Shown: positions 7,357 to 31,577, numbered from the stretch's first letter. The stretch is DNA of 64,000 nucleotides from Spirochaetota bacterium (GCA_965277105.1 OZ255710.1:792730-856729); one strand, 5' to 3'. Numbers and translations: made by a program. Notes: a model not told the origin generated them from the sequence alone.

Positions 7357-7371
7357 ATGAGGAGAAAAATT

Positions 7372-12906: not shown

Positions 12907-12950
12907 ACCCTCAAAGGATTTTCTTTCCTGTCTACTCCTTTGAGGGTTTT
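12907..12950 (+). terminator. Rho-independent terminator
   Basis: accctcaaagga (12907..12918) pairs perfectly with tcctttgagggt (12936..12947) and is followed by ttt. Confidence 0.7.
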
Positions 12951-13070
12951 CTAAATTTCTTCTATAAATTTTCTAGATTAATAAAACACTCTGAAATGAA
13001 AATTAAAAATTAAATTGAATAAATTCATTGTATAGTTATTATTTAATTTTAATTTATGAGGAAAAAAGCT

Positions 13071-13976: not shown

Positions 13977-14203
13977 AAGCACCCAATAAATATTGTCCTT
14001 AGTCAACTTCTGCATAAAAAATGCTGAATGAGCACTAATCATTCAGCATTAATTACCCGGCTTTCAACTAGTCACATTACTTCGAGGAAGCTTGCTCTCG
14101 GGAAAATTGAAAAATCTTAGCTAAATTTATAATTATTTCACTAAACTAAAAAATCCCAATCGCATTACGTGGTGTAATTTTATCACCCAAAAAAATACAA
14201 TCT

Positions 14204-16418: not shown

Positions 16419-17273
16419 TTGTCAGCTTCACCTTCTCCCCAAAAAAAGCCTATACAATTAAACAAATCTTTTAAATTTAAAGATAAAAAACATGAAAGCA
16501 AAGATAATTACATCTGCGGTTATCTCATTTTATTCGATATTATTGATTCTACTAAAAGGAAAGAAAAATACAAAAAAGACGATGAATGGTTAGAACATCT
16601 AAATTTATTTTATTCAGAATTTTACCAATTCTCAAATCAACTAATTAAAAAAATTACAGAAGAAGTTAAAAAAATTACTTTTCTTGATGATAAAGCAGTT
16701 ATTAAAACCATTGGCGATATGGGTTTTTTGTTTTTGCCTTTTGAAAAACAAAAAACTCCTAATTATGACGAAGAAAAAAAGGAAGGGATCCCGAATATTT
16801 CAAAACTTATTCTAGAGAAAACAATGAATTTCTGTAATTACAAGTCAGGAATTCCTGAATTAAAACTCAAAACTATTATTACTTATTTATATCAAGTTTT
16901 TTTAATCAATTTAAATAAGGGAGAAAACAAATTTGATATCGTCGGTAAAGGGATAGATTTTTCTTTTCGACTAGAAGGTTTTGCCAATTCTTCTTGCATT
17001 ATTTTAAATAAATATCTTGTTGAATCTATAAAAAAGCTTGGAGAATGTGCTACTAATAAAACTAATGAAGATCTGAGTATTAATTTTTCTAATACACTAT
17101 ATGACATCGTCAAAGTTAGAAAAACAATTAGAGGCTGGGATGATGAAAAAGAAGAGTTTTATTTTCTTACCAATCCAGAAATGACTAAAGATACGTATGA
17201 AAAACGCGAGGACTTTTTAGATGAAAATTCTATTTACGCAGAGTTGTTTTTAAAACACGAAAAAAGACCCTAA
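16419..17273 (+). CDS. Stand-alone class III nucleotidyl cyclase-like protein (no sensor or effector domain)
   Basis: YLILFDIIDSTK matches the first metal-Asp motif (FxDIxGFT). IKTIGDMGFLF matches the second (IKTIGD). FDIVGKGIDFSFRLEGFA aligns with G..VN.AaRLE, with Asn replaced by Asp. The C-terminal VRKTIRGWDDEKEEFYFL resembles the terminal beta-hairpin. The only in-frame start is TTG at 16419, directly after a TATAAT. Confidence 0.6.
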   Translation: MSASPSPQKKPIQLNKSFKFKDKKHESKDNYICGYLILFDIIDSTKRKEKYKKDDEWLEHLNLFYSEFYQFSNQLIKKITEEVKKITFLDDKAVIKTIGDMGFLFLPFEKQKTPNYDEEKKEGIPNISKLILEKTMNFCNYKSGIPELKLKTIITYLYQVFLINLNKGENKFDIVGKGIDFSFRLEGFANSSCIILNKYLVESIKKLGECATNKTNEDLSINFSNTLYDIVKVRKTIRGWDDEKEEFYFLTNPEMTKDTYEKREDFLDENSIYAELFLKHEKRP

Positions 17274-17671
17274 CCCCCACTCCCCAACCTCACCCCTAAA
17301 TAAATCCCCCCAGCCAACGCCGCCACTCCCACCACTGGTATCCCAATCACCGCCACGTAATACCAAAATTCCCCCCGGTTTTTAAGGTAATTATTTTCCG
17401 CCTCGAAGTCGTCGATTAAAAGATTTTTCTCATTTACGGACAAGGCGATAATCTCCTGTTTTTCCGCCTCCAACTCATCCACCCGGCGAATTAAAAGCGG
17501 ATATAACTCTATTATCCGAATCATCCGCAAAACTTCGCTAGGCGAATTTAAATCAATCTTTTTATGATAAAACGGCTCGGGGTATTTTTGTAAGTCGTTA
17601 CCAAGTAATAACGTTGTTGCTAATAGTGACAATGTAATTACTCTCACTAATAATGATAGCTTCATTTTCAA
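17270..17671 (-). CDS. Bitopic membrane protein (N-terminal signal/anchor, coiled coil, C-terminal TM), last gene of the lysis block
   Basis: MKMKLSLLVRVITLSLLATTLLLG at the N-terminus and FWYYVAVIGIPVVGVAALAGGIYLGV at the C-terminus. No Cys is present. It overlaps the upstream gene by 74 nt in another frame. Confidence 0.4.
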   Translation of the reverse strand: MKMKLSLLVRVITLSLLATTLLLGNDLQKYPEPFYHKKIDLNSPSEVLRMIRIIELYPLLIRRVDELEAEKQEIIALSVNEKNLLIDDFEAENNYLKNRGEFWYYVAVIGIPVVGVAALAGGIYLGVRLGSGG

Positions 17672-17846
17672 ATTCTTTTTTAGTTTCTAATTGCTTATTT
17701 ATAATGATTTTTTCTTGCTCGAATATTTCTTTTTTCCGTTCGGCCAATTCGCTCGTTTTATCTCGACTAAAAAAAAGGTAGGTGCCACTTATCCCCAAAA
17801 TAGCACCCACCAAAAAGGCTATAATGATAATCTTATAGCCCCGCAC
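17598..17846 (-). CDS. N-terminally anchored coiled-coil protein (i-spanin-like architecture)
   Basis: 82 aa. TM helix IIIIAFLVGAILGISGTYLFF is followed by a charged helical segment. Its position is distal in the lysis cassette. Confidence 0.35.
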   Translation of the reverse strand: MRGYKIIIIAFLVGAILGISGTYLFFSRDKTSELAERKKEIFEQEKIIINKQLETKKEFENEAIIISESNYIVTISNNVITW

Positions 17847-18168
17847 GTTTTTCTCTCCTTAGAAAAAAATCATCGAGGGTTTTTAAAAAACTACCGTCGG
17901 CGACTGTCCTCGTCGTTACTCTTAAAAGCCAAATCCCACTCAAAGCAATTAAATTATATTTCTCTATATCTTTAATAAATCCAGTTACTCGATTATGCCG
18001 CCCCCCAGTCCAAACCCCGCCTTCGAACTCAATCGCTAACTTGTATTTTTCGACATAATAATCTATTCTAAATTTTCTATTATCTAAGAATTTATACTCT
18101 TTCGTGTAATCAATTTTTTTTTGTTTAAAATAGTTTTCTATAAGTAGTTTTGCTAAATCGGAGTTCAT
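17833..18168 (-). CDS. Small Vsr/DUF559-like PD-(D/E)xK-fold endonuclease-like protein
   Basis: FRIDYYVEKYKLAIEFEGGVWTGGRHNRVTGFIKDIEKYNLIALSGIWLLRV follows the D...(I/V)E.(D/E)G...H...D.(R/K)...L...G..(L)R pattern of DUF559/Vsr-type nucleases. Confidence 0.45.
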   Translation of the reverse strand: MNSDLAKLLIENYFKQKKIDYTKEYKFLDNRKFRIDYYVEKYKLAIEFEGGVWTGGRHNRVTGFIKDIEKYNLIALSGIWLLRVTTRTVADGSFLKTLDDFFLRREKRAGL

Positions 18169-18181
18169 TTTTTTACCGTTA

Positions 18182-18532
18182 TCAATTAATGTCTTTCGCT
18201 TCTAATTTTTTCACTCGCACTCCCTTTTTCTTAAAAAAAGAACTAAGGACTTTAATTAAATCGTCATCACTAATATTAAGGCTTATTCTTAAAACCGTTA
18301 TCCCTTCTTCAGCAAAAAGATTATCTTTTCTATAATTGCTTTTTTTATTTACCTCAATTTTCCCATTGATATTTTTCCCTATCATAATCTCAATAGCCGT
18401 TTTGTATTGATGAAGGTAAAAATCAGTTTTATACTTTACGCTACTAGTAAACAAATAATCAAAAACATAAGGTATGCTATTTTTGCTGAAATACTTTCTT
18501 ATTTTATTTTTTAATTTTCTAACTTTTATCAT
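18182..18532 (-). CDS. Second small DUF559-like protein (possibly degenerate active site)
   Basis: KTDFYLHQYKTAIEIMIG...YRKDNLFAEEGITVLRI has the same spacing as the neighbour. It lacks the (D/E)G after the IE, and its tail is basic. Confidence 0.35.
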   Translation of the reverse strand: MIKVRKLKNKIRKYFSKNSIPYVFDYLFTSSVKYKTDFYLHQYKTAIEIMIGKNINGKIEVNKKSNYRKDNLFAEEGITVLRISLNISDDDLIKVLSSFFKKKGVRVKKLEAKDIN

Positions 18533-18771
18533 TTTTTTTTATTTATAATGTTTTTTAAAAATCCCGTCTTCTCCACCGTGTCGGCTCCGATCCACGCCCC
18601 AATTAAAAGGCACAACGGGCTAATGATTATCTCATAAAACTCATTTAACGCCTTTGACTTATCGAACAAATCCAGCCCCACTAAAACAAAGTTATAAACC
18701 ATCCCGCCGACTAAAATACTCGTAACCATCAAAGCAACGCTAAACCTTTTCCAGCTTTTTTTATTTTCCAT
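18529..18771 (-). CDS. Holin-like two-TM protein
   Basis: 80 aa with two hydrophobic helices (FSVALMVTSILVGGMVYNFVLVGL; IIISPLCLLIGAWIG) and a basic C-terminus. It lies immediately downstream of the endolysin and its stop overlaps the next gene. Confidence 0.45.
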   Translation of the reverse strand: MENKKSWKRFSVALMVTSILVGGMVYNFVLVGLDLFDKSKALNEFYEIIISPLCLLIGAWIGADTVEKTGFLKNIINKKK

Positions 18772-18789
18772 TTTTTAAACTCCTTATTT

Positions 18790-19269
18790 TTAGACGTTCC
18801 AATTTTTGTATTTTGTCATTCCGTTTTCTCGATACGCCCTTAAAATCTCTTTTCGATTATTTCCCGAAGTAAAACTTACATGAACCCAGGCAGGATTTTT
18901 ATCATTTCCAAATTCCCAGATTAGTTGGTCGAAATCCAGCTCGTCTTTTATCGTGTTGAAAATATCCGCGTTGGTTAAAACCGATTTTTTATTATCCATA
19001 TCAATGTCGATAGCTTCGCCTTTACAGTGCTGACTTTTAGTGCTCCCGCCAATGGCCGCGTTAAGGACCGGACTACGATACCCGCTGCTAATGAAAATCG
19101 GCACTTCGCACAGTTTTCGTAACGGCTGAAAAAGATATTTTGCTAAATATGATAAATTAGCCAGTGCTTCCTTTGTAGGATAATTATCAATCCCTAATCG
19201 TAAGGCAGTAGTTGATTTTATAGCTTCCCCCAGGCTTAAATTTTCCGAGAGTTTCATCGCTTTCATCAT
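18790..19269 (-). CDS. Peptidase M15A-type cell-wall hydrolase (endolysin)
   Basis: SGYRSPVLNAAIGGSTKSQHCKGEAIDI ... NPAWVHVSF matches the H-x6-D...H zinc triad and surrounding motif of M15 (VanY / L-Ala-D-Glu peptidase-like) phage lysins. Confidence 0.8.
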   Translation of the reverse strand: MMKAMKLSENLSLGEAIKSTTALRLGIDNYPTKEALANLSYLAKYLFQPLRKLCEVPIFISSGYRSPVLNAAIGGSTKSQHCKGEAIDIDMDNKKSVLTNADIFNTIKDELDFDQLIWEFGNDKNPAWVHVSFTSGNNRKEILRAYRENGMTKYKNWNV

Positions 19270-19442
19270 CTAAACCACGCTCCTAAAAACTGAAGCACGC
19301 TCCCTTTTGCTATTAACTTTTCTCCTAAGGCCAAAAGCAAAATAGCAATTAAAATATTTATCTTGTGATTAATCTTTCTATTCAGCCTATGGTATTTTTT
19401 CATGGCGCTCATTTCACGGTTGGTTTTCAGATGAAAATTCAT
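19266..19442 (-). CDS. Small single-TM protein, paralog of 19482..19733 (not in supplied ORF track, 58 aa)
   Basis: Hand translation: MNFHLKTNREMSAMKKYHRLNRKINHKINILIAILLLALGEKLIAKGSVLQFLGAWFR. Its TGA overlaps the endolysin ATG (ATGA). The C-terminal 45 aa align with MVNKYDRLNNKLNILIVVLVLSLGENLGVLKFLGALFKL. Confidence 0.5.
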   Translation of the reverse strand: MNFHLKTNREMSAMKKYHRLNRKINHKINILIAILLLALGEKLIAKGSVLQFLGAWFR

Positions 19443-19481
19443 AGTAGATTTTTTTTTTCAACTTTAAAGGCCTGGTTATTT

Positions 19482-19733
19482 TCATAATTTAAACAACGCC
19501 CCTAAAAACTTCAACACCCCCAAGTTTTCCCCTAAAGACAAAACTAAAACCACGATTAAAATGTTGAGCTTGTTGTTGAGCCTATCGTACTTGTTAACCA
19601 TGGCTAATATCTTTCGCTCGTTTTCTTTTATCCTATCCATCGCCCCAGTGGAGCCGTTGCCGTAAAGGTCGTGCTTGATTGTCTGCACGTCTTCTTTGAT
19701 TTTGGCATTGGTTCGTTTGGTTGGATTAGTCAT
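19482..19733 (-). CDS. Small single-TM protein (holin/antiholin-like candidate)
   Basis: 83 aa. A hydrophilic N-terminal half is followed by the TM helix LNILIVVLVLSL. It lies between the tail fibre and the endolysin, and its paralog is immediately downstream. Confidence 0.45.
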   Translation of the reverse strand: MTNPTKRTNAKIKEDVQTIKHDLYGNGSTGAMDRIKENERKILAMVNKYDRLNNKLNILIVVLVLSLGENLGVLKFLGALFKL

Positions 19734-19736
19734 TTT

Positions 19737-20934
19737 TTAGCGGTATTTTATGAAAGCGCAGAGCTGGACGCTTTTCGGGCGGGTTTCGCTGGAGCCTTCG
19801 CTACTAGTATTTCTTGTTTCACCACTATTAAAATCAGTGTCGTCAAAATTCACAAAAAGTTGTTGTGCATATGGCCCTCTATTTTGTCTAAAAACTTTAA
19901 CTTCATGATTATGCTCTTCAAACGTATCTTTCTGATAATAAAGAATATTGAAATAACCCCTATTCGGATCCACTCCTTGCCCTTCGTCTAAGGCCCTAAA
20001 AAAAAGCCCTTGAAAGTTCGGCAGGCGGAATTTCTTTTGTCCGTTTACGGATTGAATTCTAAAATATCTATTATAGATGTAACCTGAATTATAACTACCA
20101 TTAAAAATACTATCTGTAATATCTTGACTGTGTCTATAAATCGCAGTACTGATAGCACCTCCCCCTGTCCCTAGCCCTGTTTCTACTATAATTTTATTAT
20201 CCGCATTATGTTGCGACAATATCCAATCATACAAATCTAAATAAGCAGAATTATCAACAGCGTCATAAACAGTTCGTCCGTCTAGTTTTAAATAATTAGG
20301 TGGTCGTAAAGTAGTTGGGAAATAGGCTATTTGCCCGATGTCCTCCTTGTTCCTCGTTTCTAAATCATTTATCCTTTGCTCTAAACGATTAATCAATTCG
20401 CTATTGTTGTCATCGACTACTTTTATCTGCTCTTCAACTCCCTGTATCGTGGTGTCGTTGATAGTTTTTATATTATTTTTAATGCTCTCTACTTGGTTAT
20501 TTATTCCTGGGATTTTCGTGGTGTTGATGGTGCTTATCTGGCTATTTATCCAATGGATTTTATTTTCATTAATGTCTTTTATGGCATCTTGGTTGCTGGT
20601 TATTTTTTGGTTAATTCCCGGGATTTTATTGTCAACTACTTTTATTTTATTTTCAATCTCCGGCACCTTGGTGTCGTTGAGATTTTTTAGGTTGTTTTTA
20701 ATCTCCGGGATTTTTTCATCAAAAATTTCATCCCTTTCGCTCTTAAAGTATTTGCTCCACTTTTGGACTTTCTCCATCATCCCGTTAAACTCCTTGGCGC
20801 TTAAGGCCTGCCCTTCTCTAAAGCCTTCTTTGCGGATAGCTTCACTGAGGTCGGTTTTTTTGTCGTCGGGGAGGTTGTCCGCCGAAAATGTCGACGGTGT
20901 CGCTCGGGGGTTTAATTTCGTTGTCGTTGGTCAT
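19737..20934 (-). pseudogene. Tail fibre paralog 2 (collar-domain C-terminus) with N-terminal frameshift
   Basis: The ORF-track product starts at internal MMEKVQKW (20780). Upstream, ATG 20934 encodes MTNDNEIKPPSDTVDIFG, then one extra C (cc at 20879..20880, against gttgtcgccgaaaat in fibre 1) shifts the frame. The shifted frame reads DNLPDDKKTDLSEAIRKEGFREGQALSAKEFNG, homologous to fibre 1. The C-terminus is GQIAYFPT...SSETRPKSVQLCAFIKYR. Confidence 0.65.
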
Positions 20935-21014
20935 TCATTATCTCCTTTTTTTTTACAATATTTTTCTTAATTTTTTTCCTTAATTTTTTTTTTATTTTTA
21001 TAATTCATCTCATT

Positions 21015-21971
21015 TTAGCGGTATCTGATGAAAGCACAAAGCTGGATGTTTTTCGGGCGGGTTTCGCTGGAGCCGTTATATTGGGAATAATGTCTATCGT
21101 TACTATCAGTAGGAAATCCTTGCTTTAAATTTGTCGCGATTAATGACTGATAATGAGTATCAGAAGCTATTGAATCTCCATCTATAGGCAACTCATGCCT
21201 ATGACTTTTAAACGTATCGCCTCGATACCATAAAATCTTTTCATTAGCTCCATCTGGGTTTACTCCTTGCCCTTCTTCGAGAACCCTAAGAAAAACTCCT
21301 TGAAAATTAGGCACCTTGAACTTTTTTTCACCATTTGCTATTTGAACTCTAAAATGTTTATTGTCTGTTGAGTTAGATGAAAAAGTGGAATGAGTAATAT
21401 CTGTCGCAAAATGTTTAAGAGCATTTGAAATACTTTGTCTGCCTGTCGATATTAATATCTTATTATTCGCGCTATGCTCGCTCATTATCCAGTTGAATAA
21501 ATCCAAATACTCGGGGTTAGCCACCGCATCATACACCGTCTGCCCGTCGAGTTTGAGATAATTAGCCGGCGTTTTAACTGTCGGGAAATAAGCAATCTGG
21601 CCGATGTCGCGTTTAATCTTTTGCTCTAAATCACGCATTCGCTCTTCTAAACTATTTTTGTTTTCATCGATTATTTCCTTGTAATCGTCGATGAGCGTCC
21701 TATTTTCATTGATTAACCTTTTGTTCTCATCGGTTACATTTTTGTGGTTGTCGATAAGTGCTTTATTGCTTTTTGCTGTATTTTCTATTCGCTGCTTTTC
21801 ACTTTCTAGCCACTTAACCCACTTTTGGGTTTTCTCCATCAGCCCGTTAAAGTCTTTGGCGGTTAAGGCCTGCCCTTCTCTAAAGCCTTCTTTGCGGATA
21901 GCTTCACTGAGGTCGGTTTTTTTGTCGCTAGGGAGGTTGTCGCCGAAAATGTCGTCGGGGGTTTTTGTCAT
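21015..21971 (-). CDS. Tail fibre protein with phage tail-collar-type C-terminal domain
   Basis: N-terminal attachment region, coiled coil, then IGQIAYFPTVKTPANYLKLDGQTVYDAVANPEYLDLFNWI and the terminal SSETRPKNIQLCAFIRYR, typical of collar-domain fibres. Confidence 0.7.
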   Translation of the reverse strand: MTKTPDDIFGDNLPSDKKTDLSEAIRKEGFREGQALTAKDFNGLMEKTQKWVKWLESEKQRIENTAKSNKALIDNHKNVTDENKRLINENRTLIDDYKEIIDENKNSLEERMRDLEQKIKRDIGQIAYFPTVKTPANYLKLDGQTVYDAVANPEYLDLFNWIMSEHSANNKILISTGRQSISNALKHFATDITHSTFSSNSTDNKHFRVQIANGEKKFKVPNFQGVFLRVLEEGQGVNPDGANEKILWYRGDTFKSHRHELPIDGDSIASDTHYQSLIATNLKQGFPTDSNDRHYSQYNGSSETRPKNIQLCAFIRYR

Positions 21972-21986
21972 TAGTTTATCCTTTGA

Positions 21987-22682
21987 TTAAAAATCTTTTT
22001 CATGCAGAGTGAAGCCTAGTTTTAAACCAAAACCAGGATTTCGACCAAATAAAAAAGTTTTTTCTAAACCATAGTCGATCCTCATCTTGTTTTTCCCTAA
22101 ATTAAAACTATAAAGTAACTCGTAATGTTCTTGTAAATAACTTATCTCATTTCTAGTTGCGGGTTCTCCATTTTTTTCAATCTCTGCTGTAGTTTCTAAA
22201 TCAAAAAAAACAAATAGCACCATATCGGAAAAAATAAAAAAATTAAACTTTTCGTTTAACTCAAGCACTTTACTAAGTTCAACAAAAGCATTATAGGTGA
22301 AGTCGTCATAAATTGATGAGATCTTGGCTAATAAAATTAACCGGTAAGAATTATCCTTACTTCGCTTTTTTTCGTCACTGTCGCTTGCTAGTAACATATG
22401 CGACGATATGCGAGGTATTTCTAAAAGCTCCCCAAAATAATCCAACCACTTCCCCTTAGCGGTGGTGATGTTATTGTAAAACTGTAAATTTTCAACTTCC
22501 CCGTTTGACTCGTTAGAGAAACTATCCAGTTGATTATGCGCATCCCTTCTTCCTTCACGAAGCTCATCTTTTATTACCTCACTCGACAAGTGCCGGGCTA
22601 TTTTCTCAAATACAGAAAGCCATATTTTCCCTTGGCCTTCTAGACCAACCAACTGATTAATATTCGTTAATTTTTTACTCAT
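21987..22682 (-). CDS. Baseplate/tail protein (P2 gpI / Mu gp48-like position)
   Basis: 231 aa, directly after and overlapping the baseplate J-like gene. The call rests on position and size only. Confidence 0.4.
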   Translation of the reverse strand: MSKKLTNINQLVGLEGQGKIWLSVFEKIARHLSSEVIKDELREGRRDAHNQLDSFSNESNGEVENLQFYNNITTAKGKWLDYFGELLEIPRISSHMLLASDSDEKKRSKDNSYRLILLAKISSIYDDFTYNAFVELSKVLELNEKFNFFIFSDMVLFVFFDLETTAEIEKNGEPATRNEISYLQEHYELLYSFNLGKNKMRIDYGLEKTFLFGRNPGFGLKLGFTLHEKDF

Positions 22683-23997
22683 TTGATTCTTCTTCTTCTG
22701 CTGCTGCTGCTTGTTCTGCTTCTGTTTCTGCTTCTGCTTGTTCTTTTTGCTTAACTTTAATTAATTTTTCATTATAATAAAGCTCAATATTGTCCATATC
22801 AATGATGGCGATTTTATTAAAAAGCAACTGCACGGAAAAGTCGTCACCCCAATCGGTAATATCAGATGCTTTCTTAATGAAAATATTAAACAAGCTAAAG
22901 CCTTTTAAAAAAGTTAGTCGTTCTTGGAGGTATTTGGAAATCTCGAAGTTACTAATAAGTTCCCCGGTTCTTTTATCGAGTAAAAAGCGGTTTATCTCGG
23001 TGTAAATATTTTCGAGGAGATTTTTCTTATTCCTCTCGCTAATTTCTCTCGCGTCAATCTTAAACTTTAACGGCTCATTAGTTGGTTTGACCACGTAAAA
23101 AGATATGGGATTACCGTTAAATTTACCACCAATTTCAATGGCATTATCCGGCTTGTACCACTTGATATTAGGAGATGTGTTGTGCAAAATGGCCTCCCAA
23201 ATTTCCTTCTTCACTCCCTCTTCTATAGAAGATTTCTCTTCCACGTTGTCATCGATAATCACCGCCGTTTGATTAAACGGAACGCCAGTGGTGCTTTCTT
23301 CATTAATGCTTTCATCGCTATAGTTGAAAAATACTTTAGCGTACTTGATATTAGCAATTTTATTCAGCTCTTGCTCGAGTCTCGTTACGCTTAAAACCGA
23401 CGGGTAAGTTTTTTTAACCCGCTCCCTTAGCTCTTCATCGCTTTCTGCGTCTCTACCAAACAAAGCCGACAAAGGGTTAGTCACACTTGCTATTGCGCCA
23501 CTAGGGTCTTTATCGATTTCCGTCAAAGTGTTGGCAAAAACATTTTTATTCGCTCCTGGTTTTTCGCTTCGAAAACTCACCTTCTTCACTCCTGAATTAT
23601 CAGTAATGACAAAATCTTCATCGCTAATAAAAAAGTTTTCTCCGTCACTTACTCTCACAGGATTGTTCGTCGTAAAATCATAAGCGGCATTTTTATCTTT
23701 AAAGGTTAGTTCCATCGTCACCTTACTAGGTTTAGCTTTTAACCGGTCAATTGACTTTAACAACGCTAGGTTGTTTAACGAATTATCCCTTGCTTCATTG
23801 ACGTTAAACGAGGCCCGGACTTTATTCATTTGCAGATAAATATTATAAGTCCAATCGGCAATGAAGTTAGCGATAATGTGGTCATTGGAGTAAGGGATTA
23901 TATCTATCTTATTGTCGCGAGCTAGCTCAATTATTTCTTCTAATAATTCTTCTTTGGTGGGCAGTTCAAACCCTTTTTCCGTAAATCTATTTTTCAT
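22675..23997 (-). CDS. Baseplate J-like wedge protein
   Basis: 440 aa. The N-terminus FTEKGFELPTKEELLEEII resembles J-family starts. It follows a gp25/W-like gene with an overlapping stop/start. The acidic tail EQAEAETEAEQAAAAEEEE is unusual. Confidence 0.55.
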   Translation of the reverse strand: MKNRFTEKGFELPTKEELLEEIIELARDNKIDIIPYSNDHIIANFIADWTYNIYLQMNKVRASFNVNEARDNSLNNLALLKSIDRLKAKPSKVTMELTFKDKNAAYDFTTNNPVRVSDGENFFISDEDFVITDNSGVKKVSFRSEKPGANKNVFANTLTEIDKDPSGAIASVTNPLSALFGRDAESDEELRERVKKTYPSVLSVTRLEQELNKIANIKYAKVFFNYSDESINEESTTGVPFNQTAVIIDDNVEEKSSIEEGVKKEIWEAILHNTSPNIKWYKPDNAIEIGGKFNGNPISFYVVKPTNEPLKFKIDAREISERNKKNLLENIYTEINRFLLDKRTGELISNFEISKYLQERLTFLKGFSLFNIFIKKASDITDWGDDFSVQLLFNKIAIIDMDNIELYYNEKLIKVKQKEQAEAETEAEQAAAAEEEESNE

Positions 23998-24289
23998 TAG
24001 TTATCGTCTCCACTTTTAGGGGAATGCTGTTGATTTTTAAGTCAATGATTAATTTATTTTCTTGGTTCTTAATATCAATAATTTCCGCTTCCACGATCTC
24101 CTCATCGTTTAGTAAAAAATCCTTAATATCCTTTTCAATATAAAACTCGTTAAGCGGGTTATGAAAATATTTGAACCAATCAAAACCTAAATTATCATTA
24201 CTTAAACAATCCCCTTTTTTAATTTTTAAGCGGTTAATCACCCGCTCTTGTAGTTGTTCTTTTTCATTTAATAAATAACTGTTAAACAT
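23987..24289 (-). CDS. gpW/gp25-like baseplate wedge protein
   Basis: 100 aa. The size, its position before the J-like gene, and the pattern RLKIKKGDCLSNDNLGFDW...IKDFLLNDEEI fit the GPW_gp25 pattern. Confidence 0.5.
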   Translation of the reverse strand: MFNSYLLNEKEQLQERVINRLKIKKGDCLSNDNLGFDWFKYFHNPLNEFYIEKDIKDFLLNDEEIVEAEIIDIKNQENKLIIDLKINSIPLKVETITNEK

Positions 24290-24355
24290 TTTTTTTTGCT
24301 ACTTTTTTTTTATTGTTCGATTTTTTATTGTTCGATTATTAATCATTTGATTTTT

Positions 24356-24661
24356 TTAACCGGTAATTTTTATATCGATAGTCCCCTGAACAGGTCCACT
24401 AGGAGCGGTTAACACGTAGATAGCGGTTATATCCATTTTCTTTACTTCGGCAATAATCGCATCGGCCATTTTTTGGATATACACATCATTAGTAATGGGA
24501 TCATCCGCAGGTTCTTTTTTTTCTTCTTCTTCTTCCCGCTTTTCTCCTTTTTCTTCGACGTCTTTCTTGGCTTTTTCTTCTGATTTTCCTCGGTCTTCCT
24601 CAGCAGCCTTTTTAAAAGCAGTTTTAATGGCTCCAGCTAAGGTACTAGCATTCATTGGCAT
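24356..24661 (-). CDS. Hypothetical acidic tail/baseplate protein
   Basis: 101 aa with a Glu/Lys-rich centre and a conserved-looking C-terminal beta segment (TAPSGPVQGTIDIKITG). No function is recognisable. Confidence 0.3.
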   Translation of the reverse strand: MPMNASTLAGAIKTAFKKAAEEDRGKSEEKAKKDVEEKGEKREEEEEKKEPADDPITNDVYIQKMADAIIAEVKKMDITAIYVLTAPSGPVQGTIDIKITG

Positions 24662-24684
24662 AATTTTTTTCTCCTTTATTATTT

Positions 24685-25200
24685 TTATTTTTTATCTAAA
24701 AGTTGTTGTAATTTTTGTTTTAATCCTATGACGTTAGTAATATTATGGGGCATGATATTTTGCGGGCCCATTTGGGTTAAAACTTGATTGTCTTTCATCG
24801 CATCTAAAATCCCTTCCAATATAGCAAGCAAACTTTGCCCACCAGCGCTTATGGCGATTTTTCCATTTTCTTTTAGATGAATACTGACATCTTCTTTCAT
24901 GAGCTTAATCCCTTTTTCATAAGCCATATCAATTTTCCCCATAATGAAACTGTTATGATAATTCTCTTTAAAGAAAAACTCCTGGTCAGTTAGGCTGTCT
25001 TCTAAGGGATAACCGGCTAGGGCCACCACCACGATGTCATCTTTTTCGTAGTTGAAAACGATAGAATTATCCGCTCCTGCGGCCATCAAAGCCCTTACTC
25101 CTTTGACGATGCCCAACTTGCCCTCGCTATCTTTCAAGAGCGGCTGCACGTCATAGGTGCCGTCTTCGTTATTTGCGGTAATTTGCCCTTTATAAAACAT
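24685..25200 (-). CDS. Baseplate spike/assembly protein V-like (OB-fold)
   Basis: The likely start is MFYKGQITANNEDGTYDVQPLL (ATG 25200), not 25239. The G.V...D....V.V......G......V and DDIVVVALAG pattern resembles gpV/gp45 N-domains. Confidence 0.45.
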   Translation of the reverse strand: MFYKGQITANNEDGTYDVQPLLKDSEGKLGIVKGVRALMAAGADNSIVFNYEKDDIVVVALAGYPLEDSLTDQEFFFKENYHNSFIMGKIDMAYEKGIKLMKEDVSIHLKENGKIAISAGGQSLLAILEGILDAMKDNQVLTQMGPQNIMPHNITNVIGLKQKLQQLLDKK

Positions 25201-25912
25201 ACAACAACTGGTAGCTAATTTGCCCCTTATAAAATACACTAACGATTTTATGGATAATCCCCGAGTACGGCCCCTCTAACTTTTGCATTAACGAAAAGTC
25301 TTTGATGCCTTGACTGGCAATCATCCGATAATTATTACTCATTTTTTTCATTTCTTCTCCTCGATCAAAAAAAGCCAATTGCTCTCCTTTTTCTTCCACT
25401 CCCTCATAGGATAGGAACTCGTAAATGCTACTGACTTTGTTCGTGGTCGTGTGGGTATTCGTAACCTCGACCCGATTTTTATTCCAAACCCAGATCATCT
25501 TCAATGGCCAAAAAACCTCATTTAATAGTTTTTTAATTTGAATTTTGCACGGGATGTGATAATTCACCCGCGCTTTATCTTCTCCATAACTCACCACTTC
25601 GACCTCGCTAAATACCTGAGAAAAATTACTATCCTTTTTAATAAAAAAGTTTTTCACGTTATCATATAGCGGATAATCCAAATAACCCCAGATATAAAAC
25701 TTTTTATTTTCAATATAAAAACGGTTGATTTTAAAAGTGAATTTATTAATAGTAACGATGCTACGTTCCTTAAAAATCTGGTAACTATTTTTGGGATTTA
25801 AAATCTCCACTTTGGCGATATTCCTCCCCAGACTTTCAATTATCTCAAAATTAAAATCCGCCTCACTCAGGTCGTGGGTGCGATTATTATTATTAATCGT
25901 AAAGAGCATCAC
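25190..25912 (-). CDS. Hypothetical baseplate hub-region protein
   Basis: 240 aa. Coding is supported by operon context and start/stop overlaps. No motif is recognised. Confidence 0.3.
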   Translation of the reverse strand: MMLFTINNNNRTHDLSEADFNFEIIESLGRNIAKVEILNPKNSYQIFKERSIVTINKFTFKINRFYIENKKFYIWGYLDYPLYDNVKNFFIKKDSNFSQVFSEVEVVSYGEDKARVNYHIPCKIQIKKLLNEVFWPLKMIWVWNKNRVEVTNTHTTTNKVSSIYEFLSYEGVEEKGEQLAFFDRGEEMKKMSNNYRMIASQGIKDFSLMQKLEGPYSGIIHKIVSVFYKGQISYQLLYVL

Positions 25913-26142
25913 TAGTTTCGCCTATCTCCAAACTCCAGCATCCCATCACTGGTAACGCCCTTTAAATAAAGCAAACCAAAAAATACCGATACCCCCTTGC
26001 GGACAAAATCCCCTTGAACAAAAACGCCGTTGCGGTAGAGGAGGAAGTAGTAGTCGTTATGGATTTCTCTAATCTCCAAGTCGTAGTATTCATTCCCGTT
26101 TTTTACTGGGTAACGGGTTCCCGGTTTAAGTTTTACTGTCAT
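25912..26142 (-). CDS. Hypothetical small tail protein
   Basis: 76 aa. Its stop abuts the next start (25912). Position matches gpU/X-type small proteins, but no motif is recognised. Confidence 0.3.
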   Translation of the reverse strand: MTVKLKPGTRYPVKNGNEYYDLEIREIHNDYYFLLYRNGVFVQGDFVRKGVSVFFGLLYLKGVTSDGMLEFGDRRN

Positions 26143-26169
26143 GCCTGATGTTTTCCTTAGTTCAATAAT

Positions 26170-26733
26170 TTAGCCAATTAGATTACTTTGTTTAATGAAG
26201 TTATCTAAAGCTAGTAAATTAACCTTAGACTTTTTCCCTTTGGCGTTAGTTTTTCTCTCTACTTCGTTAAAGCTCACATTAACGAGGAGGTTATTGATCC
26301 CATCCACGCCCCTTACTTTGCGCTCACCCAAACTAGTGATAATGAGATTCTCATTTTTTTCTTCATAACCAAATAAAGTCAACTTAGTTTTCTCGCTTTT
26401 CCATTTGTCTAAGCGCTCTTTTCTGCTAAGGGCCGTCAGTGGCGAGTCGTACAAGTTTTTATTAATAAGCGAATCGTAATAGTTTTTCAACGATAAAGTT
26501 TCACTAATCAGCCAACCACTTAAGTTGATTTTTTTACGCTTATCAATAATGAGGTTATTCTCGTTGTCCTCTTTCACCTCGCCAATGTTCGACACGTCAT
26601 TAGCCGAAAGCGAGTTGTAACTTTCAATGACGTTAAAAAACACACTCTCATAGCGGCCCCCTAACTTTTCTTCATTGACTAAGAAAACTAAAAAATTCTT
26701 GGACTTTAAATTCCTTCTAATGTTGGTGATCAT
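26170..26733 (-). CDS. Hypothetical tail protein downstream of tape-measure candidate
   Basis: 187 aa. Its ATG directly follows the TAA of the upstream reading frame (taaatg at 26731..26736). Confidence 0.3.
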   Translation of the reverse strand: MITNIRRNLKSKNFLVFLVNEEKLGGRYESVFFNVIESYNSLSANDVSNIGEVKEDNENNLIIDKRKKINLSGWLISETLSLKNYYDSLINKNLYDSPLTALSRKERLDKWKSEKTKLTLFGYEEKNENLIITSLGERKVRGVDGINNLLVNVSFNEVERKTNAKGKKSKVNLLALDNFIKQSNLIG

Positions 26734-27599
26734 TTACTTAGCCCCCTCACCAACTCCGCCATTGACTTCATTTTCGTTGCGGTTAAACGCCCCTTTCAGC
26801 CAACCAGCGAGGCCTCCTTCTCTATTCATTAGGTTAAGAATATCGCTAAGCTCAATCTTAGGAAATTTCTCTAAAAGCTCGTTTTTAAAGTTCGCTATTT
26901 CTTTCACGATAGCATCTTCAACGGTTTTGACAATAGGACTTAAAATCCCCTTCCCTTCAAAGCCGGAGCCACAATCTCTTGTTCTCCCTTGGTTATATTT
27001 TGAACGTTTTTCATAAATCCTCCGACCGAATCCTTACCGCCTTGGAAGAAGCTTACAAGATTATCAATAAAGCCTTTCGACCCTTTAGTTGCTAAACTAG
27101 GCAGAAAACTTTTTAATGATGGTAACTTAAGGTTTAATAAATCCTTAATCCCATTACCCAATTCTCCTTTAGCGTTCGTGAATATTTCTTTTAAGAAAGA
27201 AAACGGTTGAGAGTTTTTGCTAAAATAATTTTTTATCCCACTTAAAATACCATTGCCTTCACCAAAAAGTTTTTTAGGTAAATCAGTAAAACTCTTAAAC
27301 TTCTCTTTAAACGCCTCCATTAGCTTCTGCCAATCTTCGCCTACTCTTTCTTTCACTTCTTCTTTTTTTTCGTTGAAGTCATTTAAGAAGTTCTGGCTTT
27401 TTTCTTGGATTTCTTGCCAGATATTTTTCCCTAATTTTTCTTTACTTAAATCTTTTAGAAAAGCTAAGTTCCCTTTTAAATTTTCTTGGTTTATTGCAGA
27501 AAGTTGTTGATTGATTTCTTTTAACCAACCACTCTGCTCACCCGGCAACTTTAAGTTCATCGAAAAATCTTTTATTGCTAAATCTGCCATTGTTGTCAT
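26734..27599 (-). CDS. Tape-measure candidate, split into a 219-aa ORF plus a start-less ~90-codon ORF in the -1 frame
   Basis: Gly/Lys/Phe-rich low-complexity sequence in the position after the chaperone pair. ORF 26940..27599 stops at GRGF*. A second frame, open from ~27010 to TAA 26734..26736, reads ...GFEGKGILSPIVKTVEDAIVKEIANFKNELL...GAK and has no ATG giving 60 aa or more. Confidence 0.4.
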
Positions 27600-27823
27600 G
27601 ATAAATCCTCTAATTTTTGAGCCATCTTTCCCAACTCTTTAGGGGATCGCGAAAGCATAAAAGCCATGGAAGTTTGCAGCATCCGCTCTTGCTCTTTTTT
27701 TTTATAGGCCTTATAAAAATCCAAAAGCTCGGTTACGGTGATTTTATTAAAATCTTCCAATTTCACGACCCCACTAACGAGAAGTTCTTGCTTAATCTTT
27801 TTTATTGTTTGATAATGTTGCAA
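27596..27823 (-). CDS. Tail assembly chaperone, downstream/overlapping frame
   Basis: 75 aa with a TTG start, overlapping the upstream ORF by 32 nt in the +1 frame. It sits between tube and tape measure, the canonical G/GT (E/E') position. Confidence 0.45.
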   Translation of the reverse strand: MQHYQTIKKIKQELLVSGVVKLEDFNKITVTELLDFYKAYKKKEQERMLQTSMAFMLSRSPKELGKMAQKLEDLS

Positions 27824-28067
27824 TTTTCTCTTTTATCTCTTTATGGGTTCCAGTGATAATGTGCTTTTTAAGTTTTGCATTTTCTACTGCTACCTTATTC
27901 GTCGTAATAAAAATCCATAAAAAAGTTAATAAGAGCTCAATGTTTTCTTTACCAAAAACTTGGTTGCGATCTAACGCTTTGGTATCCCCCTCATCGTCTT
28001 CTTGCCAAACAAACCTAGTGGTTAAATCAACCACCGCATAGTGCATCAGCTTGCTGTAGTCTTGCAC
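27792..28067 (-). CDS. Tail assembly chaperone, upstream frame
   Basis: 91 aa, between tube and tape measure. It ends ...SNNKKD* across an A6 run (T6 on the plus strand, 27798..27803). Confidence 0.45.
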   Translation of the reverse strand: MQDYSKLMHYAVVDLTTRFVWQEDDEGDTKALDRNQVFGKENIELLLTFLWIFITTNKVAVENAKLKKHIITGTHKEIKEKIATLSNNKKD

Positions 28068-28240
28068 TTCTCCTCTACTATCTAAAATACCATACGCCGG
28101 CGAAATTATCTTTTCATACCTTTCGCAATCTAACTCTTTAACCCTTAAAATACAGCTGGCATTGCTCCCATTTTTCTTATAAAAAACCTACATGCTGGTC
28201 TTGTATCATTATGTAATCCTTTATTACTTGCTAACTTTGC

Positions 28241-28639
28241 CTAAGTTCCCGTTATCGTGTCGGCCTTAATAGTTACCGCCACTTGGGCACTCTCTCCTCC
28301 CGTTCTATCTAAACGCACTACTCGAGCTCCCGAACAAACCGTAGGAACTTTAATTCCTCCTCGTTTGAAACTAAGGACAAAAGTAGTGTCAGTTTCTTTT
28401 AACCCAAATAAAATATCAAAAGCTTTCGTGCCATCGAAAATGTTAAAATTCACTGTCCCGCTTTTATCGGCCATCGTCACATGCTGGGCTCCCCCGCCTG
28501 CTCCAATAACGATATTACTACCGTCAGAGGTCATAGTGATTGCCACATCTTGGTCGCCAAAATCTTTTCGATCGATTAAAAACCCATTGATGATTAAACT
28601 ATCTAAATGTTTTTTATAAATTGAAATTGAATTAGCCAT
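28241..28639 (-). CDS. Tail tube protein (candidate)
   Basis: 132 aa, beta-rich, immediately after the sheath-sized gene. The call is from size and order. Confidence 0.5.
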   Translation of the reverse strand: MANSISIYKKHLDSLIINGFLIDRKDFGDQDVAITMTSDGSNIVIGAGGGAQHVTMADKSGTVNFNIFDGTKAFDILFGLKETDTTFVLSFKRGGIKVPTVCSGARVVRLDRTGGESAQVAVTIKADTITGT

Positions 28640-28650
28640 GGTTTACTCCT

Positions 28651-29613
28651 TTAATTTTCTATGATTATGTTAGCCGTTATTTTTTCTACGCTACCAGCTA
28701 AAGCAAAATTGACATGAACTCTTACTAACCTATTGTTTTTATCGTCATCGGTTTGACTATCGAAATCGGGAATATTGATCTCGTAATCGTATTTTTCTCC
28801 GTTGATGTTACGAACAATTCCTTCTTGCCCTAAGGACTGGAAGGCGTCGATAAGGACACTTTCTATTTTAAAAAAGCCTGTGGCATCATAACTAACCCTT
28901 TTATCATTTAACAGCAAAGCCTTCAGCTTGTTTTTTAAATTCTGTCTGATATAATCTTTAGCATAAAGCTTATCGATATGCTCTCCTTGAGAGTTAATCC
29001 CGGTCCCACTGTAATAGTTGCTGCCGTCCACGTAAAAAACATTAATCTTGTCATTTTTTAACTCATTTAAGTTGTTAAAAATACTTGGCTTATAATTGAT
29101 TAGTCGATTAGCCCAAGTAGATTGGGGAAAATTTGCTAAACAATTACTCACCCATACCCCGATGACCTCGACTTTATTCCTCACATATACCAACCGGTTG
29201 TTTTCATAGTGGTCTTGTGTTTTCCCTTCTGTTTGCTGGAACACTAACCCAGTATCTCCTAAAACATTTTCCACAACCTGCTTAGCATCTAAACTTTCGT
29301 CTAAAAGGACAGTAGCATAAATCGCGTTATCCCCTAAAGCTTTTTTAAGCTCCTGGTCGTAGTCTGCTTTATACTTAGCGTAATACACTTCTTCTAGTTT
29401 AACGTCTTCGCTAAAGATAGCGTTTAAAGTGTTTTTAGCTTTCTCGCTTAAAGCGTCTAACTTATCGGTTCCCTTATCGTTAATCGTATAAGTTTTTGTT
29501 TCGAAGCTACCATCGGTTGCTGTTTCTTTGTCTAATAGTAATAAATTTCTCGCACTAGCACTAGGTTGATACTCATTATTAATATTGATATTAATCATTG
29601 TTAAAGAACTCAT
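28651..29613 (-). CDS. Contractile tail sheath protein (candidate)
   Basis: The ORF opens at 29658, but aaaggagaaacaATG places the start at 29613 (MSSLTMINI..., 320 aa). It is the largest structural gene directly upstream of the tube-sized gene. The call is from order and size, and I do not see a diagnostic motif. Confidence 0.55.
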   Translation of the reverse strand: MSSLTMINININNEYQPSASARNLLLLDKETATDGSFETKTYTINDKGTDKLDALSEKAKNTLNAIFSEDVKLEEVYYAKYKADYDQELKKALGDNAIYATVLLDESLDAKQVVENVLGDTGLVFQQTEGKTQDHYENNRLVYVRNKVEVIGVWVSNCLANFPQSTWANRLINYKPSIFNNLNELKNDKINVFYVDGSNYYSGTGINSQGEHIDKLYAKDYIRQNLKNKLKALLLNDKRVSYDATGFFKIESVLIDAFQSLGQEGIVRNINGEKYDYEINIPDFDSQTDDDKNNRLVRVHVNFALAGSVEKITANIIIEN

Positions 29614-29635
29614 TGTTTCTCCTTTAATTTTTTTT

Positions 29636-30079
29636 TCATTTTTTTTCTTTGATAACAAGCTCGTTGTTATAATTGATGTTTTCTATTTTTTCTTTACTAA
29701 ATTGATTTTTTCTAAAATATTTTATTCCTAAGGTCAAAGTTCTAAAAGGGAGGAAGTCGTCCTTATACCCCATAGTGCCTAGGTCTTTTACTTCGACCAC
29801 GCAATCAGAGTAATTAGTCTCATCGAAATAATTTTTTATTTTAAAAACTAATTCATCTAATTCTTCATGGGCACTAATATCTTTGTCTCGGCCAATAACT
29901 TCCAAGCTCACCCTTTCATAGATGCGATATTCGGCGGTGCTATACCAATCATCCATTCCCACTAATCGCCAAATAAGATTAATGGCTTCACCTTTGATGA
30001 CCTCTCCGGTAACGTGATAGGCAATGTCATCGTTAACTAAGTAATCTTTTAAACGTTGATTAATTGCAATTAATTTCAT
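29636..30079 (-). CDS. Hypothetical neck/tail-completion protein
   Basis: 147 aa, immediately upstream of the sheath. Position only. Confidence 0.3.
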   Translation of the reverse strand: MKLIAINQRLKDYLVNDDIAYHVTGEVIKGEAINLIWRLVGMDDWYSTAEYRIYERVSLEVIGRDKDISAHEELDELVFKIKNYFDETNYSDCVVEVKDLGTMGYKDDFLPFRTLTLGIKYFRKNQFSKEKIENINYNNELVIKEKK

Positions 30080-30203
30080 TTTTTTTTTTAACTTTATTTT
30101 TTAATTTTTAAGTACTTACTTTCATTTGATTAAAATCGATGAGCTAGCGCTCTCGCCATCTTCGATATTCGCTCAAACTTTTCTTTTTGTAATTTTTCTA
30201 TTT

Positions 30204-30428
30204 TCATTTCTCTTGCCTTTTTTGCTTTTTTTTAGCAGTGGTTTTTTTGTTGGTGGTAATTTTTCTCTCAGCAACTTTTTTCGCTAATGGCTTTGTTGGC
30301 TTAACGATTAATCCACTAATTTTTTTCCCGGCAATTTTTAAGTATTGCCCAATTTTTTTGAAAGCAGAAATAATTCAATAAAAAAACTGCCTTATAGAAA
30401 CTTTTTTAAAAAACTTCATTGACTTCAT
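30204..30428 (-). pseudogene. Small Lys-rich ORF with in-frame TGA (17 + 56 codons), translationally coupled to the portal-like gene
   Basis: ATG 30428..30426 overlaps the portal-like TGA (ATGA). The product reads MKSMKFFKKVSIRQFFY-TGA(30375..30377)-IISAFKKIGQYLKIAGKK...KKQKRQEK. Its stop overlaps another 25-codon ORF start (ATGA). Confidence 0.3.
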
Positions 30429-31577
30429 CTTAACGTTACTCCTTTTAAATTATTTTTGGCTTGCTCTAAACTTATGACTTCTTTCTCCAAAAGCTCCAAC
30501 ACCATACTATTGTGGAGTTTGATTTTTTCCACGTCTTCTTTGGTTTCGTGGTTGAAGCTATTGAAAATTATCTGGTAGTCCGTTTTTCGCTTGCCTAAAA
30601 AAATCTTGATAAACTTTTCAATAATAGGTTTTATCTGGTACTCGCGAAAGGTATTCATATCACGCATAAAGTTCTCGACGTCTATTTTTTTGCCGGCTCC
30701 TAGGTTGTGCCCTCTGTTCTCTTCCCCAAAGATAATGCTTTTCGGAACCCCCGTGATGGCCGAGTGAATGTCTTTGATGCCGTCGATGAAGTGGTGAAAG
30801 TTAGTATGGACGTTGAAGTTGTGAATCTTATCAGCTTCTGGGGTAATGACGATATTCCCGGCTTTGATTTTATCGAGCATTACAGCCACCGCCTGCCTAA
30901 TCTTACCGGCTAAGTTCTGGTTAATGTTCTTGTCGTTGTAATGTTTGGATTGGTAAACTAGCGCCCCTTCGAGCTCTAAAAGCTTATCAGCTCGATGGAG
31001 GAGTTTTTCCACAATTTCCGAGTAAGGATAAATCTTCTCGGCGAAAGAAAACTGGCTATTGGGGTAAAGGTTGATCAGGCCATAACGACTAGGAGAGATT
31101 TCCTTGGGACCTCTTGCGATTTCTACTTTTACTTTTTTGATATTGTAGCGCTTATTGAAAATGTCTTTGGGGTTAAGTTTTTCTTGAATGAGATAATCCC
31201 CACTAAAAACATTGATATCCTGAAGTTGACCAATAGTGCCTTTCCTAAAAAACCCACCTACGAAAAAAACCACCGCTCCTCTTTTCGATACCAGCGAAAG
31301 TTGAATGGCTTCAAGTAAGTTTTTTTTCTAATTGAAAATGCTTGGCATACGCCTCAAAATCTTTGTCCAACTCCGCGGCAGCAAAACGTACGACAAAACC
31401 TCGAGCATAAAGGGAAGTGGTTATCGTATTGATCACCCGTAAGACTAAAGCATTGCCCACATCTTCTAAACTTCTAATCGTAGGATAAAAAACCTTTTGA
31501 TTATTCACATCGTCAAAGTAATCTAAATCAAAAGCGTTAGTTTTTTTGCCGTTTAATAAGTTAGCGATTATTCCCAT
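30425..31577 (-). pseudogene. Portal-like protein split at a homopolymer
   Basis: ORFs 31311..31577 and 30425..31273 belong together. The downstream frame is open back into the A8 run (T8 on the plus strand, 31320..31327), and removing one A gives one ~383-aa protein. LINLYPNSQFSFAEKIYP and HSAITGVPKSIIFG resemble the HK97-type portal motifs (LL..PNP....F; fGVP..ll). The family call is tentative. Confidence 0.45.

Follow-up and report, generated by a model that had tools for sequence, protein, structure and literature searches.

The 64,000 nucleotides (nt) analyzed here, from a Spirochaetota bacterium (GCA_965277105.1 OZ255710.1:792730-856729) and hereafter called the window, carry a head-less cluster of phage tail and lysis genes that is probably the young, defective remnant (cryptic prophage) of a temperate contractile-tailed phage. 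Family and structure searches identified, on the minus strand from 32123 to 17270 (positions are counted from the first letter of the window), tightly packed and co-linear phage late genes in the order ParB-like fragment, portal, 345-bp scar, complete contractile-tail gene set and lysis cassette (Table 1). A preliminary description had placed a head-less contractile-tail cluster with its own lysis cassette at 17270-31577, all on the minus strand, and the family and structure matches confirm it. The same description had read the cluster as a tailocin, with the proviso that simple decay was not excluded; decay is now the more likely reading. Decaying prophage remnants are common. As a defective prophage the element belongs to a known class and is ordinary in kind; its tail belongs to a novel lineage.

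The gene content of the element, its deletions, its frameshifts and the mosaic makeup of its lysis block can be read directly from the DNA. The tail module has a protein with the sheath fold, a tube, and gp25-like and J-like baseplate proteins with fibers downstream. Window-wide Pfam and PHROGs searches found no capsid, protease, scaffold, terminase, integrase or regulator/repressor gene in or near the cluster; the first four, already reported missing from the cluster, have no match anywhere in the window. Family searches revealed no replication genes in the cluster, and Pfam, PHROGs and PADLOC no repressor- or activator-like gene across 16.4-32.3 kb. No attachment site (att)-like repeats were found at the element borders, and a promoter and terminator scan gave a result no better than chance. 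As in defective prophages generally, the excision, replication and virion modules are missing and the remaining genes carry inactivating mutations. The near-intact portal, the lesion density of the tail genes (not lower than that of the portal), the damage to chaperone and tape measure, and the lack of a regulator and of att sites together favor recent, unselected decay over domestication.

Head genes: what is left and what was lost

The portal gene is split into open reading frames (ORFs) of 88 and 282 amino acids (aa) by one extra A in an A8 run (31320-31327). Without that base it forms a continuous, otherwise uninterrupted frame of 384 aa, and its second ORF aligns to positions 94-348 of the 357 in the PF06381 model. 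The earlier statement that the portal-like and ParB-like genes are broken was thus overstated for the portal, whose frame is restored by removal of a single base, and correct for the ParB-like gene, of which only an 80-aa N-terminal fragment is left. Its PADLOC MTase_II match covers model positions 8-72 of 436, and its family matches mark the fragment as the 5' end of a phage ParB-nuclease/methyltransferase gene that has been truncated. Since the portal frame is otherwise intact, the loss of the head would be recent, rather than the trace of an old domestication.

Between the end of the portal and the sheath there is room, as originally described, for one 147-aa gene (29636-30079), beside the 345-bp scar with its tiny ORFs; no capsid similarity is left in the window. 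The content of the missing segment is indicated by a relative on a 4-kb contig (L004; SRR29726839), in which a major head protein (phrog_264) and then three small genes lead up to a sheath 40% identical to that of the element. The L004 order (major head protein, genes of 112, 95 and 159 aa, sheath, tube, G, GT) is the intact-phage layout of this lineage, and it shows what the 345-bp scar replaced.

Frameshifts in portal and tail genes

To locate lesions, all three frames were read wherever an ORF was short or had an odd start; an automated screen for ORFs merged by homopolymer repair was discarded for this purpose, since most of what it flags are ordinary gene junctions. Four 1-nt frameshifts were found in the element: those in the portal, the G-like chaperone, the tape measure and fiber 2. 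Chaperone G begins with an ATG at 28209 and has an extra T in a T6 run (28181-28186); the repaired protein has 137 aa, compared with 136 aa in L004. The tape measure has lost 1 nt near GGGGATTTT (26939-26950), and its repaired product has 289 aa. Fiber 2 (ATG at 20934) has an extra G at 20877-20883, where it reads GGCGGAC and fiber 1 reads GGCGAC, and its frame shifts after codon 17; once repaired it encodes 399 aa and its N terminus matches that of fiber 1. Each of the four lesions is mended by a single nucleotide, which brings the chaperone to the length expected from the relative and restores the match of fiber 2 to its paralog. Both lesions noted in the preliminary description, in one fiber and in the tape measure, are present, although the tally was short: three tail genes are hit, chaperone G included.

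The portal carries one lesion per 1.15 kb and the tail genes three per ~10.3 kb, densities that are not distinguishable. Under a uniform rate, four lesions spread over the ~14 kb of portal, tail and lysis genes would put at least one in the portal with a probability of ~0.3. Within this one genome, and with small counts, the tail-gene lesion density is therefore not lower than that of the portal, and the damage extends to the chaperone and the tape measure; the claim that tail genes were kept while the head side decayed does not survive this comparison. Both of these proteins are required for tail assembly in tailed phages.

The host control consisted of 27 host ORFs (31.8 kb, with 247 homopolymer runs of at least 6 nt) that were taken as uninterrupted. 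The host genes tested against family models (SdhA, GlpK, citrate synthase, UgpC and the GH42 galactosidase) match them end to end; SdhA shows 65-74% identity to homologs spread over many phyla. About 25 host genes, roughly 30 kb, are intact, and lesions gather in the element and, on the host side, in a single membrane-protein gene. If events fell at a uniform rate, ~30 kb of host DNA would escape them altogether with a probability of ~0.02. Because the lesions cluster in this way, real pseudogenes fit better than scattered assembly errors, and the four frameshifts are likely to be real mutations. The portal A8 and chaperone T6 lesions could nevertheless be assembly errors, as they cannot be certified as real from the assembly alone.

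A mosaic lysis block shared with siphovirus-like phages

The lysis cassette (M15 endolysin, two-transmembrane holin-like gene and small membrane proteins) is intact throughout. It lies in a block with 98% DNA identity over 17292-19257 to L001 and L002, a pair of metagenome contigs that come from a single sample (ERZ26859052); across 17313-19112 the identity to L001 is 99-100%, with only ~7 window-specific substitutions and no indels. Both contigs are siphovirus-like, with Phage_cap_E and an 848-aa TMP_3 tape measure and without a sheath, and each has this eight-gene arrangement with an S24 LexA-like repressor behind it. The identity with the window begins exactly at the endolysin start codon and ends at 17292, just before the repressor position. 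Beyond the start codon, the 83-aa protein of the element is 46% identical to its 86-aa counterpart ahead of the endolysin in both contigs. Sharp near-identity, with lower-identity synteny beyond it, indicates a recent module exchange with siphovirus-like phages. The lysis genes are part of a pool on which phages now in circulation also draw, and the regulatory region expected after them has been lost.

The same block could be construed as the leftover of a separate L001-like siphovirus prophage that happens to lie beside a myovirus tail remnant. It is 98-100% identical to L001 and L002 at the DNA level, it is the only part of the window with a DNA-level match to them, and both of its borders are sharp. 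Two juxtaposed remnants, with the block as one of them, are nevertheless very improbable in our view. Its right border falls precisely on the start codon of the endolysin, and synteny continues past it (the 83-aa and 86-aa proteins), as in a module exchange within one genome. Moreover, a similar small protein precedes the endolysin in L003, a relative of the tail cluster described below, and the genes on either side of the border are co-linear and tightly packed, with no remnant between them.

Two genes of the lysis region that had been described as membrane proteins (18182-18532 and 17833-18168) are instead phrog_503/endonuclease-like paralogs. They are ~30% identical to each other, have weak matches to HNH and homing-endonuclease families, and stand between the holin-like and membrane-protein genes; PADLOC found no defense-system match for the pair. 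Both are kept in L001 and L002 at 95-100% identity. These two contigs differ from each other beside the S24 repressor, where L001 (8047-9715) has GmrSD_N and HEPN_RiboL-PSP and L002 (13728-15379) has PIN/DUF4411 and Peptidase_M78; the contents of this slot look like swapped defense or toxin-antitoxin cargo.

A rare sheath lineage with a second head-less cluster

An exhaustive HMMER scan of 1.84 billion representatives returned only two sheath relatives above 30% identity, L004 and a sheath of 32-35% identity in a cluster designated L005 (overlapping L003) on the 646-kb contig ERZ22157276 ctg13153l. No match was obtained by megablast of the whole region or tblastn of the sheath against 50,697 phage records, and the J protein had matches of at most 31% identity in the same set. 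Word-indexed homology searches with the sheath and the repaired portal returned the query alone. Scans of genome, viral and metagenome contigs with a sheath alignment, and of metagenome contigs with a J alignment, turned up no relatives, and matches of the J alignment in IMG/VR were all distant and partial. All window proteins examined are singletons at 90% identity, and no sister genome or close relative was found in the genome, viral and metagenome collections searched. As the tail lineage is almost unsampled, it widens the known diversity of small contractile sheaths.

The L005/L003 cluster is chromosomal: ilvBN, an lpxC-fusion gene and a recN-like gene immediately precede it, with ~400 bp of intergenic DNA in between. 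Its order is two connector homologs, a neck homolog, sheath, tube, G/GT, a 638-aa tape measure, baseplate genes, three wedge/fiber modules and an amidase endolysin, with no trace of a portal or capsid. It thus resembles the window cluster in its sheath family, in co-linear neck-to-fiber homologs (23-43% identity), in lacking a head and in ending with an endolysin, and differs from it in the two extra connector homologs, the absence of a portal remnant, the 638-aa tape measure, the three wedge/fiber modules and the amidase in place of an M15 peptidase. Its core is intact and head-less, at a chromosomal site different from that of the window cluster. Its GC content, 44-46% compared with 36% in the flanking host DNA, is well above that of the host and points to a recent arrival. 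The three tandem modules (L003 5012-16670) run W-J-I-fiber twice and then J-I-fiber, with W missing from the third; two frameshifts interrupt J in the second module, and several fiber genes are 100-aa N-terminal stumps. The array could be one of host-range cassettes or of stacked remnants. Overall, the L005/L003 cluster looks recently acquired and also partly decayed.

The two head-less clusters might alternatively represent a hitherto unknown R-type tailocin lineage with a small sheath of 320-350 aa, a distant relation of the Bas63/Sf14/Pam3-type phage sheaths, derived repeatedly from prophages in uncultured low-GC bacteria, in which case the frameshifts would be assembly errors; we consider this decidedly unlikely. 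If it were true, the 289-aa tape measure would predict an unusually short particle of roughly 40-45 nm, at the rule of thumb of about 0.15 nm per residue.

Decay or domestication

R-type tailocins are head-less contractile tails accompanied by lysis genes (PMC12090994, PMC4684702). Those of Pseudomonas occupy the trpE-trpG or mutS-cinA sites and are controlled by PrtR/PrtN or PtbA, and tape measures of the Pseudomonas tailocin families span 354-963 aa (PMC4684702). The element resembles the R-pyocins of P. aeruginosa, the Rp-type tailocins of P. putida and P. fluorescens and the diffocin of C. difficile in its head-less tail, its gp25/J/I-type baseplate, its fibers and its lysis genes, and the pyocin R2 and diffocin sheaths superpose on the sheath model with a template modeling score of about 0.65. 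Unlike them, it retains remnants of the portal and ParB genes, has frameshifts in three tail genes, lacks a dedicated regulator, and lies at a chromosomal site of no demonstrated conservation. The sheath is closer to the Bas63/Sf14/Pam3-type phage sheaths than to P2-type sheaths, and the tape measure (289 aa) falls below the Pseudomonas range of 354-963 aa (PMC4684702) and far short of the 638 aa of its nearest relative; the short length may be a genuine feature or reflect an internal deletion. As assembled, the element has the lysis cassette of a tailocin and lacks two other features, intact assembly genes (the chaperone lesion lies in a T6 run) and a dedicated regulator. Capsid, protease/scaffold, terminase, integrase and replication genes are missing, yet a 384-codon portal frame with one frameshift and the ParB fragment remain.

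Several observations weigh against decay. Apart from single-base shifts, ~20 tail and lysis genes are full length without an in-frame stop, all four of the large deletions that the element appears to have undergone spared the tail and lysis modules, and an independently head-less relative with an intact core sits in another chromosome. Moreover, two of the four frameshifts lie in long homopolymers (A8 and T6; those of the tape measure and fiber 2 do not), and similar +1 homopolymer problems may exist in the host (T7 at 1361-1367 and perhaps A9 at 54338-54346), so some lesions of the element could be assembly errors. When both host events are counted, the excess of lesions in the element is only marginal (p about 0.07).

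Alternatively, the element could be a functional or very recently inactivated R-type tailocin: the host would keep its tail and lysis genes under selection and, by lysis, release head-less contractile particles that kill competitors, and the frameshifts would be assembly errors or have arisen very recently. In favor of this, the set of tail genes is complete, a lysis cassette follows it, ~20 ORFs are open and no large deletion touched the tail and lysis genes; the two homopolymer lesions have comparable counterparts in host genes; the closest chromosomal relative is cleanly head-less, without portal or capsid remnant; and, as fiber 1 is intact, the loss of fiber 2 need not matter. However, the tape-measure and fiber-2 frameshifts fall outside long homopolymers, and the chaperone and tape measure, both damaged, are needed for tail assembly. 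Nor is there a repressor or activator gene, unlike the PrtR/PrtN or PtbA of Pseudomonas tailocins (PMC4684702). The almost intact portal frame argues against long-term domestication, and no sister genome with a conserved locus was found: L005 is at another site, where its GC content suggests recent arrival, and in L003 one of the extra J copies is frameshifted twice and several fiber genes are 100-aa fragments. On balance we judge the tailocin unlikely. What stands of the preliminary tailocin proposal is the head-less tail and lysis cluster itself, now joined by a second one in the same rare sheath family; the selective retention of tail genes does not.

Readings as an extracellular contractile injection system (eCIS), a type VI secretion system or a gene-transfer agent were rejected, there being no ATPase or cargo, a lysis cassette and no head; Afp/PVC-type injection systems in particular differ from the element, which has only one sheath gene, carries a lysis cassette, and shows no AAA+ ATPase or toxin-cargo domain in any ORF of the cluster. 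The phages Bas63 (JohannRWettstein) and Sf14 and the cyanophage Pam3 supply the best sheath profile and fold matches and weak tube profile matches. In structural alignments, however, their sheaths are only 13-17% identical and are 384-450 aa long, compared with 320 aa here, and the window cluster is without head genes.

The element thus fits best among the cryptic prophages. Like them, it is a subset of modules that survives without integrase, att sites, regulation, replication or packaging, marked by large deletions and point frameshifts and by recombination with related infecting phages. It differs from them in that an almost complete late tail-plus-lysis segment survives, and in a tail lineage without a close relative among cultured phages (50,697 phage records). 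A head-less tail-plus-lysis layout alone should not be annotated as a tailocin. The element captures the earliest steps that follow loss of the head, a stage at which the domestication of tailocins is thought to begin, and a second head-less relative can be set beside it. If the element did make particles, its tape measure of 289 aa would lead one to expect the shortest R-type particle known.

A proposed history of the element

The defective-prophage reading implies the following course of events. The ancestor would have been a temperate myovirus prophage integrated in the chromosome of an uncultured low-GC bacterium. Large deletions would have taken away four parts of it: the early, lysogeny and regulatory region; the 3' part of the ParB-methyltransferase gene together with the terminase; the genes for head morphogenesis, from behind the portal up to the neck gene; and whatever came after the lysis genes. 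This would have left a segment of the late operon, from portal and scar through neck, sheath, tube, chaperones, tape measure, baseplate and fibers to lysis. The remaining genes would then have begun to drift, acquiring the 1-nt frameshifts in the portal, chaperone, tape measure and one of the two fibers, and recombination with siphovirus-like phages that share the host population would recently have replaced the lysis block. As the sequence stands, with no late-gene regulator and with a damaged chaperone and tape measure, a functional particle would not be expected. The tail module would owe its survival to the history of the deletions and the short time elapsed, and not to selection.

The tail and lysis genes

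The sheath is the best supported of the tail proteins. A profile built from its 79 nearest relatives matches the solved phage sheaths in the Protein Data Bank (PDB) at 2e-58 (Pam3) to 3e-81. Its AlphaFold2 (AF2) model has a predicted local distance difference test score (pLDDT) of 89.7, and Foldseek places the Bas63, Sf14 and Pam3 sheaths at the top, followed by those of PVC, AFP, diffocin and pyocin R2, with a probability of 1.0 to phage, eCIS and tailocin sheaths alike. The tube profile weakly matches Sf14 gp40 and the Bas63 tube protein (E 0.0016). Homologs of the GT-type extension are found at the matching position in L004 (70 aa, likewise in the +1 frame) and L003 (324-536), and the G/GT overlap contains an AAAAAAG run at 27797-27803; apart from the G frameshift, the chaperone pair is typical.

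The small genes without family matches are co-linear homologs (23-43% identity) of genes in the L005/L003 cluster. The 147-aa protein has no family match, and is 27% identical to a 161-aa protein of L005 and 25% to the 159-aa protein of L004; a profile search of the PDB gave nothing meaningful for it, and its single-sequence AF2 model (pLDDT 50) is not usable. For the five genes of the hub/spike block, which lack Pfam and PHROGs matches, there is 28-35% identity to co-linear L005 genes of 211, 243 and 192 aa, and a PDB profile search with the 240-aa protein gave nothing meaningful. The V- and I-like labels of the preliminary description are tentative, coming from position and homology to the genes of the relative, together with, for the 184-aa protein, the weak match listed in Table 1. 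The two fibers are of the collar type, with phrog_1858 and phrog_523 matches of 1e-15 to 1e-17.

Table 1. Features of the head-less tail and lysis element, listed in the direction of the minus strand.
Feature	Coordinates	Strand	Size	Basis or remarks
ParB-like N-terminal fragment	31881-32123	-	80 aa	phrog_620 1.7e-18; phrog_498 (DNA methyltransferase) 3.9e-14
Portal	30425-31577	-		PF06381 3.9e-10; phrog_146 2e-13
Scar	30080-30424	-	345 bp	tiny ORFs only; position expected for protease/scaffold, capsid and two connector genes
Neck/tail-completion candidate	29636-30079	-	147 aa	homologs directly upstream of sheath in both relatives
Tail sheath, small two-domain type	28651-29613	-	320 aa	phrog_205 6.8e-18
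Tail tube	28241-28639	-	132 aa	phrog_280 2e-8; weak KPP10_Orf10 match
Tail assembly chaperone, G-like	27792-28209	-		homologous to L004 136-aa and L005 145-aa proteins
GT-type extension ORF	27596-27823	-		+1 frame, overlaps end of G; positional homologs in L004 and L003
Tape-measure candidate	26734-27599	-	219 aa + 57 aa as read	weak PHROG tape-measure matches (1e-4); between GT and baseplate genes
Baseplate hub/spike block	24356-26733	-	five genes	position; homology to L005 genes
Hub/spike block gene	26170-26733	-	187 aa	
Hub/spike block gene	25912-26142	-	76 aa	
Hub/spike block gene	25190-25912	-	240 aa	
Spike-like protein	24685-25239 (probable start 25200)	-	184 aa	weak phage "puncture apparatus" match, E 0.04
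Hub/spike block gene	24356-24661	-	101 aa	
gp25/W-like sheath initiator	23987-24289	-		phrog_120 3.5e-8; PF10934 match below its cutoff
Baseplate J-like wedge protein	22675-23997	-	440 aa	PF04865 1.3e-13; phrog_6 2e-31
I-like wedge protein	21987-22682	-	231 aa	homologous to genes after each J copy in L003/L005; no family match
Tail fiber 1, intact	21015-21971	-	318 aa	phrog_1858 7e-16; phrog_523; weak Collar domain match
Tail fiber 2	19737-20934	-		collar-type fiber
Two small paralogs	19266-19733	-	83 aa and 58 aa	C-terminal membrane segment in each, read from sequence
Lysis block	17292-19257	-		98-100% DNA identity to siphovirus-like contigs L001, L002
M15 endolysin	18790-19257	-		PF08291 6e-16
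Two-transmembrane holin-like gene	18529-18771	-		
phrog_503 endonuclease-like paralogs (pair)	18182-18532 and 17833-18168	-		
N-terminally anchored protein	17598-17846	-	82 aa	
Protein with signal-like N terminus	17270-17671	-	133 aa	C-terminal transmembrane segment

Surroundings of the element

The element is flanked by host metabolic genes (32.3-63.4 kb) and, on the other side, by a lipoprotein gene array (5.8-16 kb); its immediate neighbors are a 284-aa gene and a sugar-ABC operon. The sole integrase-family match in the window lies at the right edge of the window, 31 kb from the tail cluster: a C-terminal Phage_integrase domain fragment (63422-63820, minus strand; PF00589 1e-25) that is probably part of another mobile element. 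Convergent on the left border of the element is a 284-aa ORF (16419-17273, plus strand) without Pfam, PHROG or PADLOC match, in which motifs resembling those of class-III nucleotidyl cyclases (ILFDIIDST, GD and GKGIDFSFRLEG) can be recognized by eye.

Two host genes have irregular frames. A polytopic membrane-protein gene (426-1624, minus strand) is split into three ORFs of 30, 68 and 234 aa, and one of its junctions closes once a T is taken out of the T7 run; it is either a host pseudogene or the result of a homopolymer assembly error. The dgoK gene (54322-55267, plus strand) has no canonical start, and the first 53 positions of its Pfam model lie upstream in the same frame; either it starts at a CTG that overlaps the previous stop (CTGA) behind GGAGGA, or there is an extra base in the A9 run.

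The lipoprotein array (5846-15880) begins directly after a tRNA-Thr gene (5631-5703), to which no link of the element was found. It consists of at least seven tandem paralogous genes, without Pfam or PHROG match, whose products have in common a signal peptide ending in SCN, and as a whole it resembles a locus for variable surface proteins. Several of the copies are not intact (9758-9973 with 10342-10974, and 12158-12826, which has no N terminus); the last and largest (14204-15880) contains a (DDEHSH)x5 repeat.

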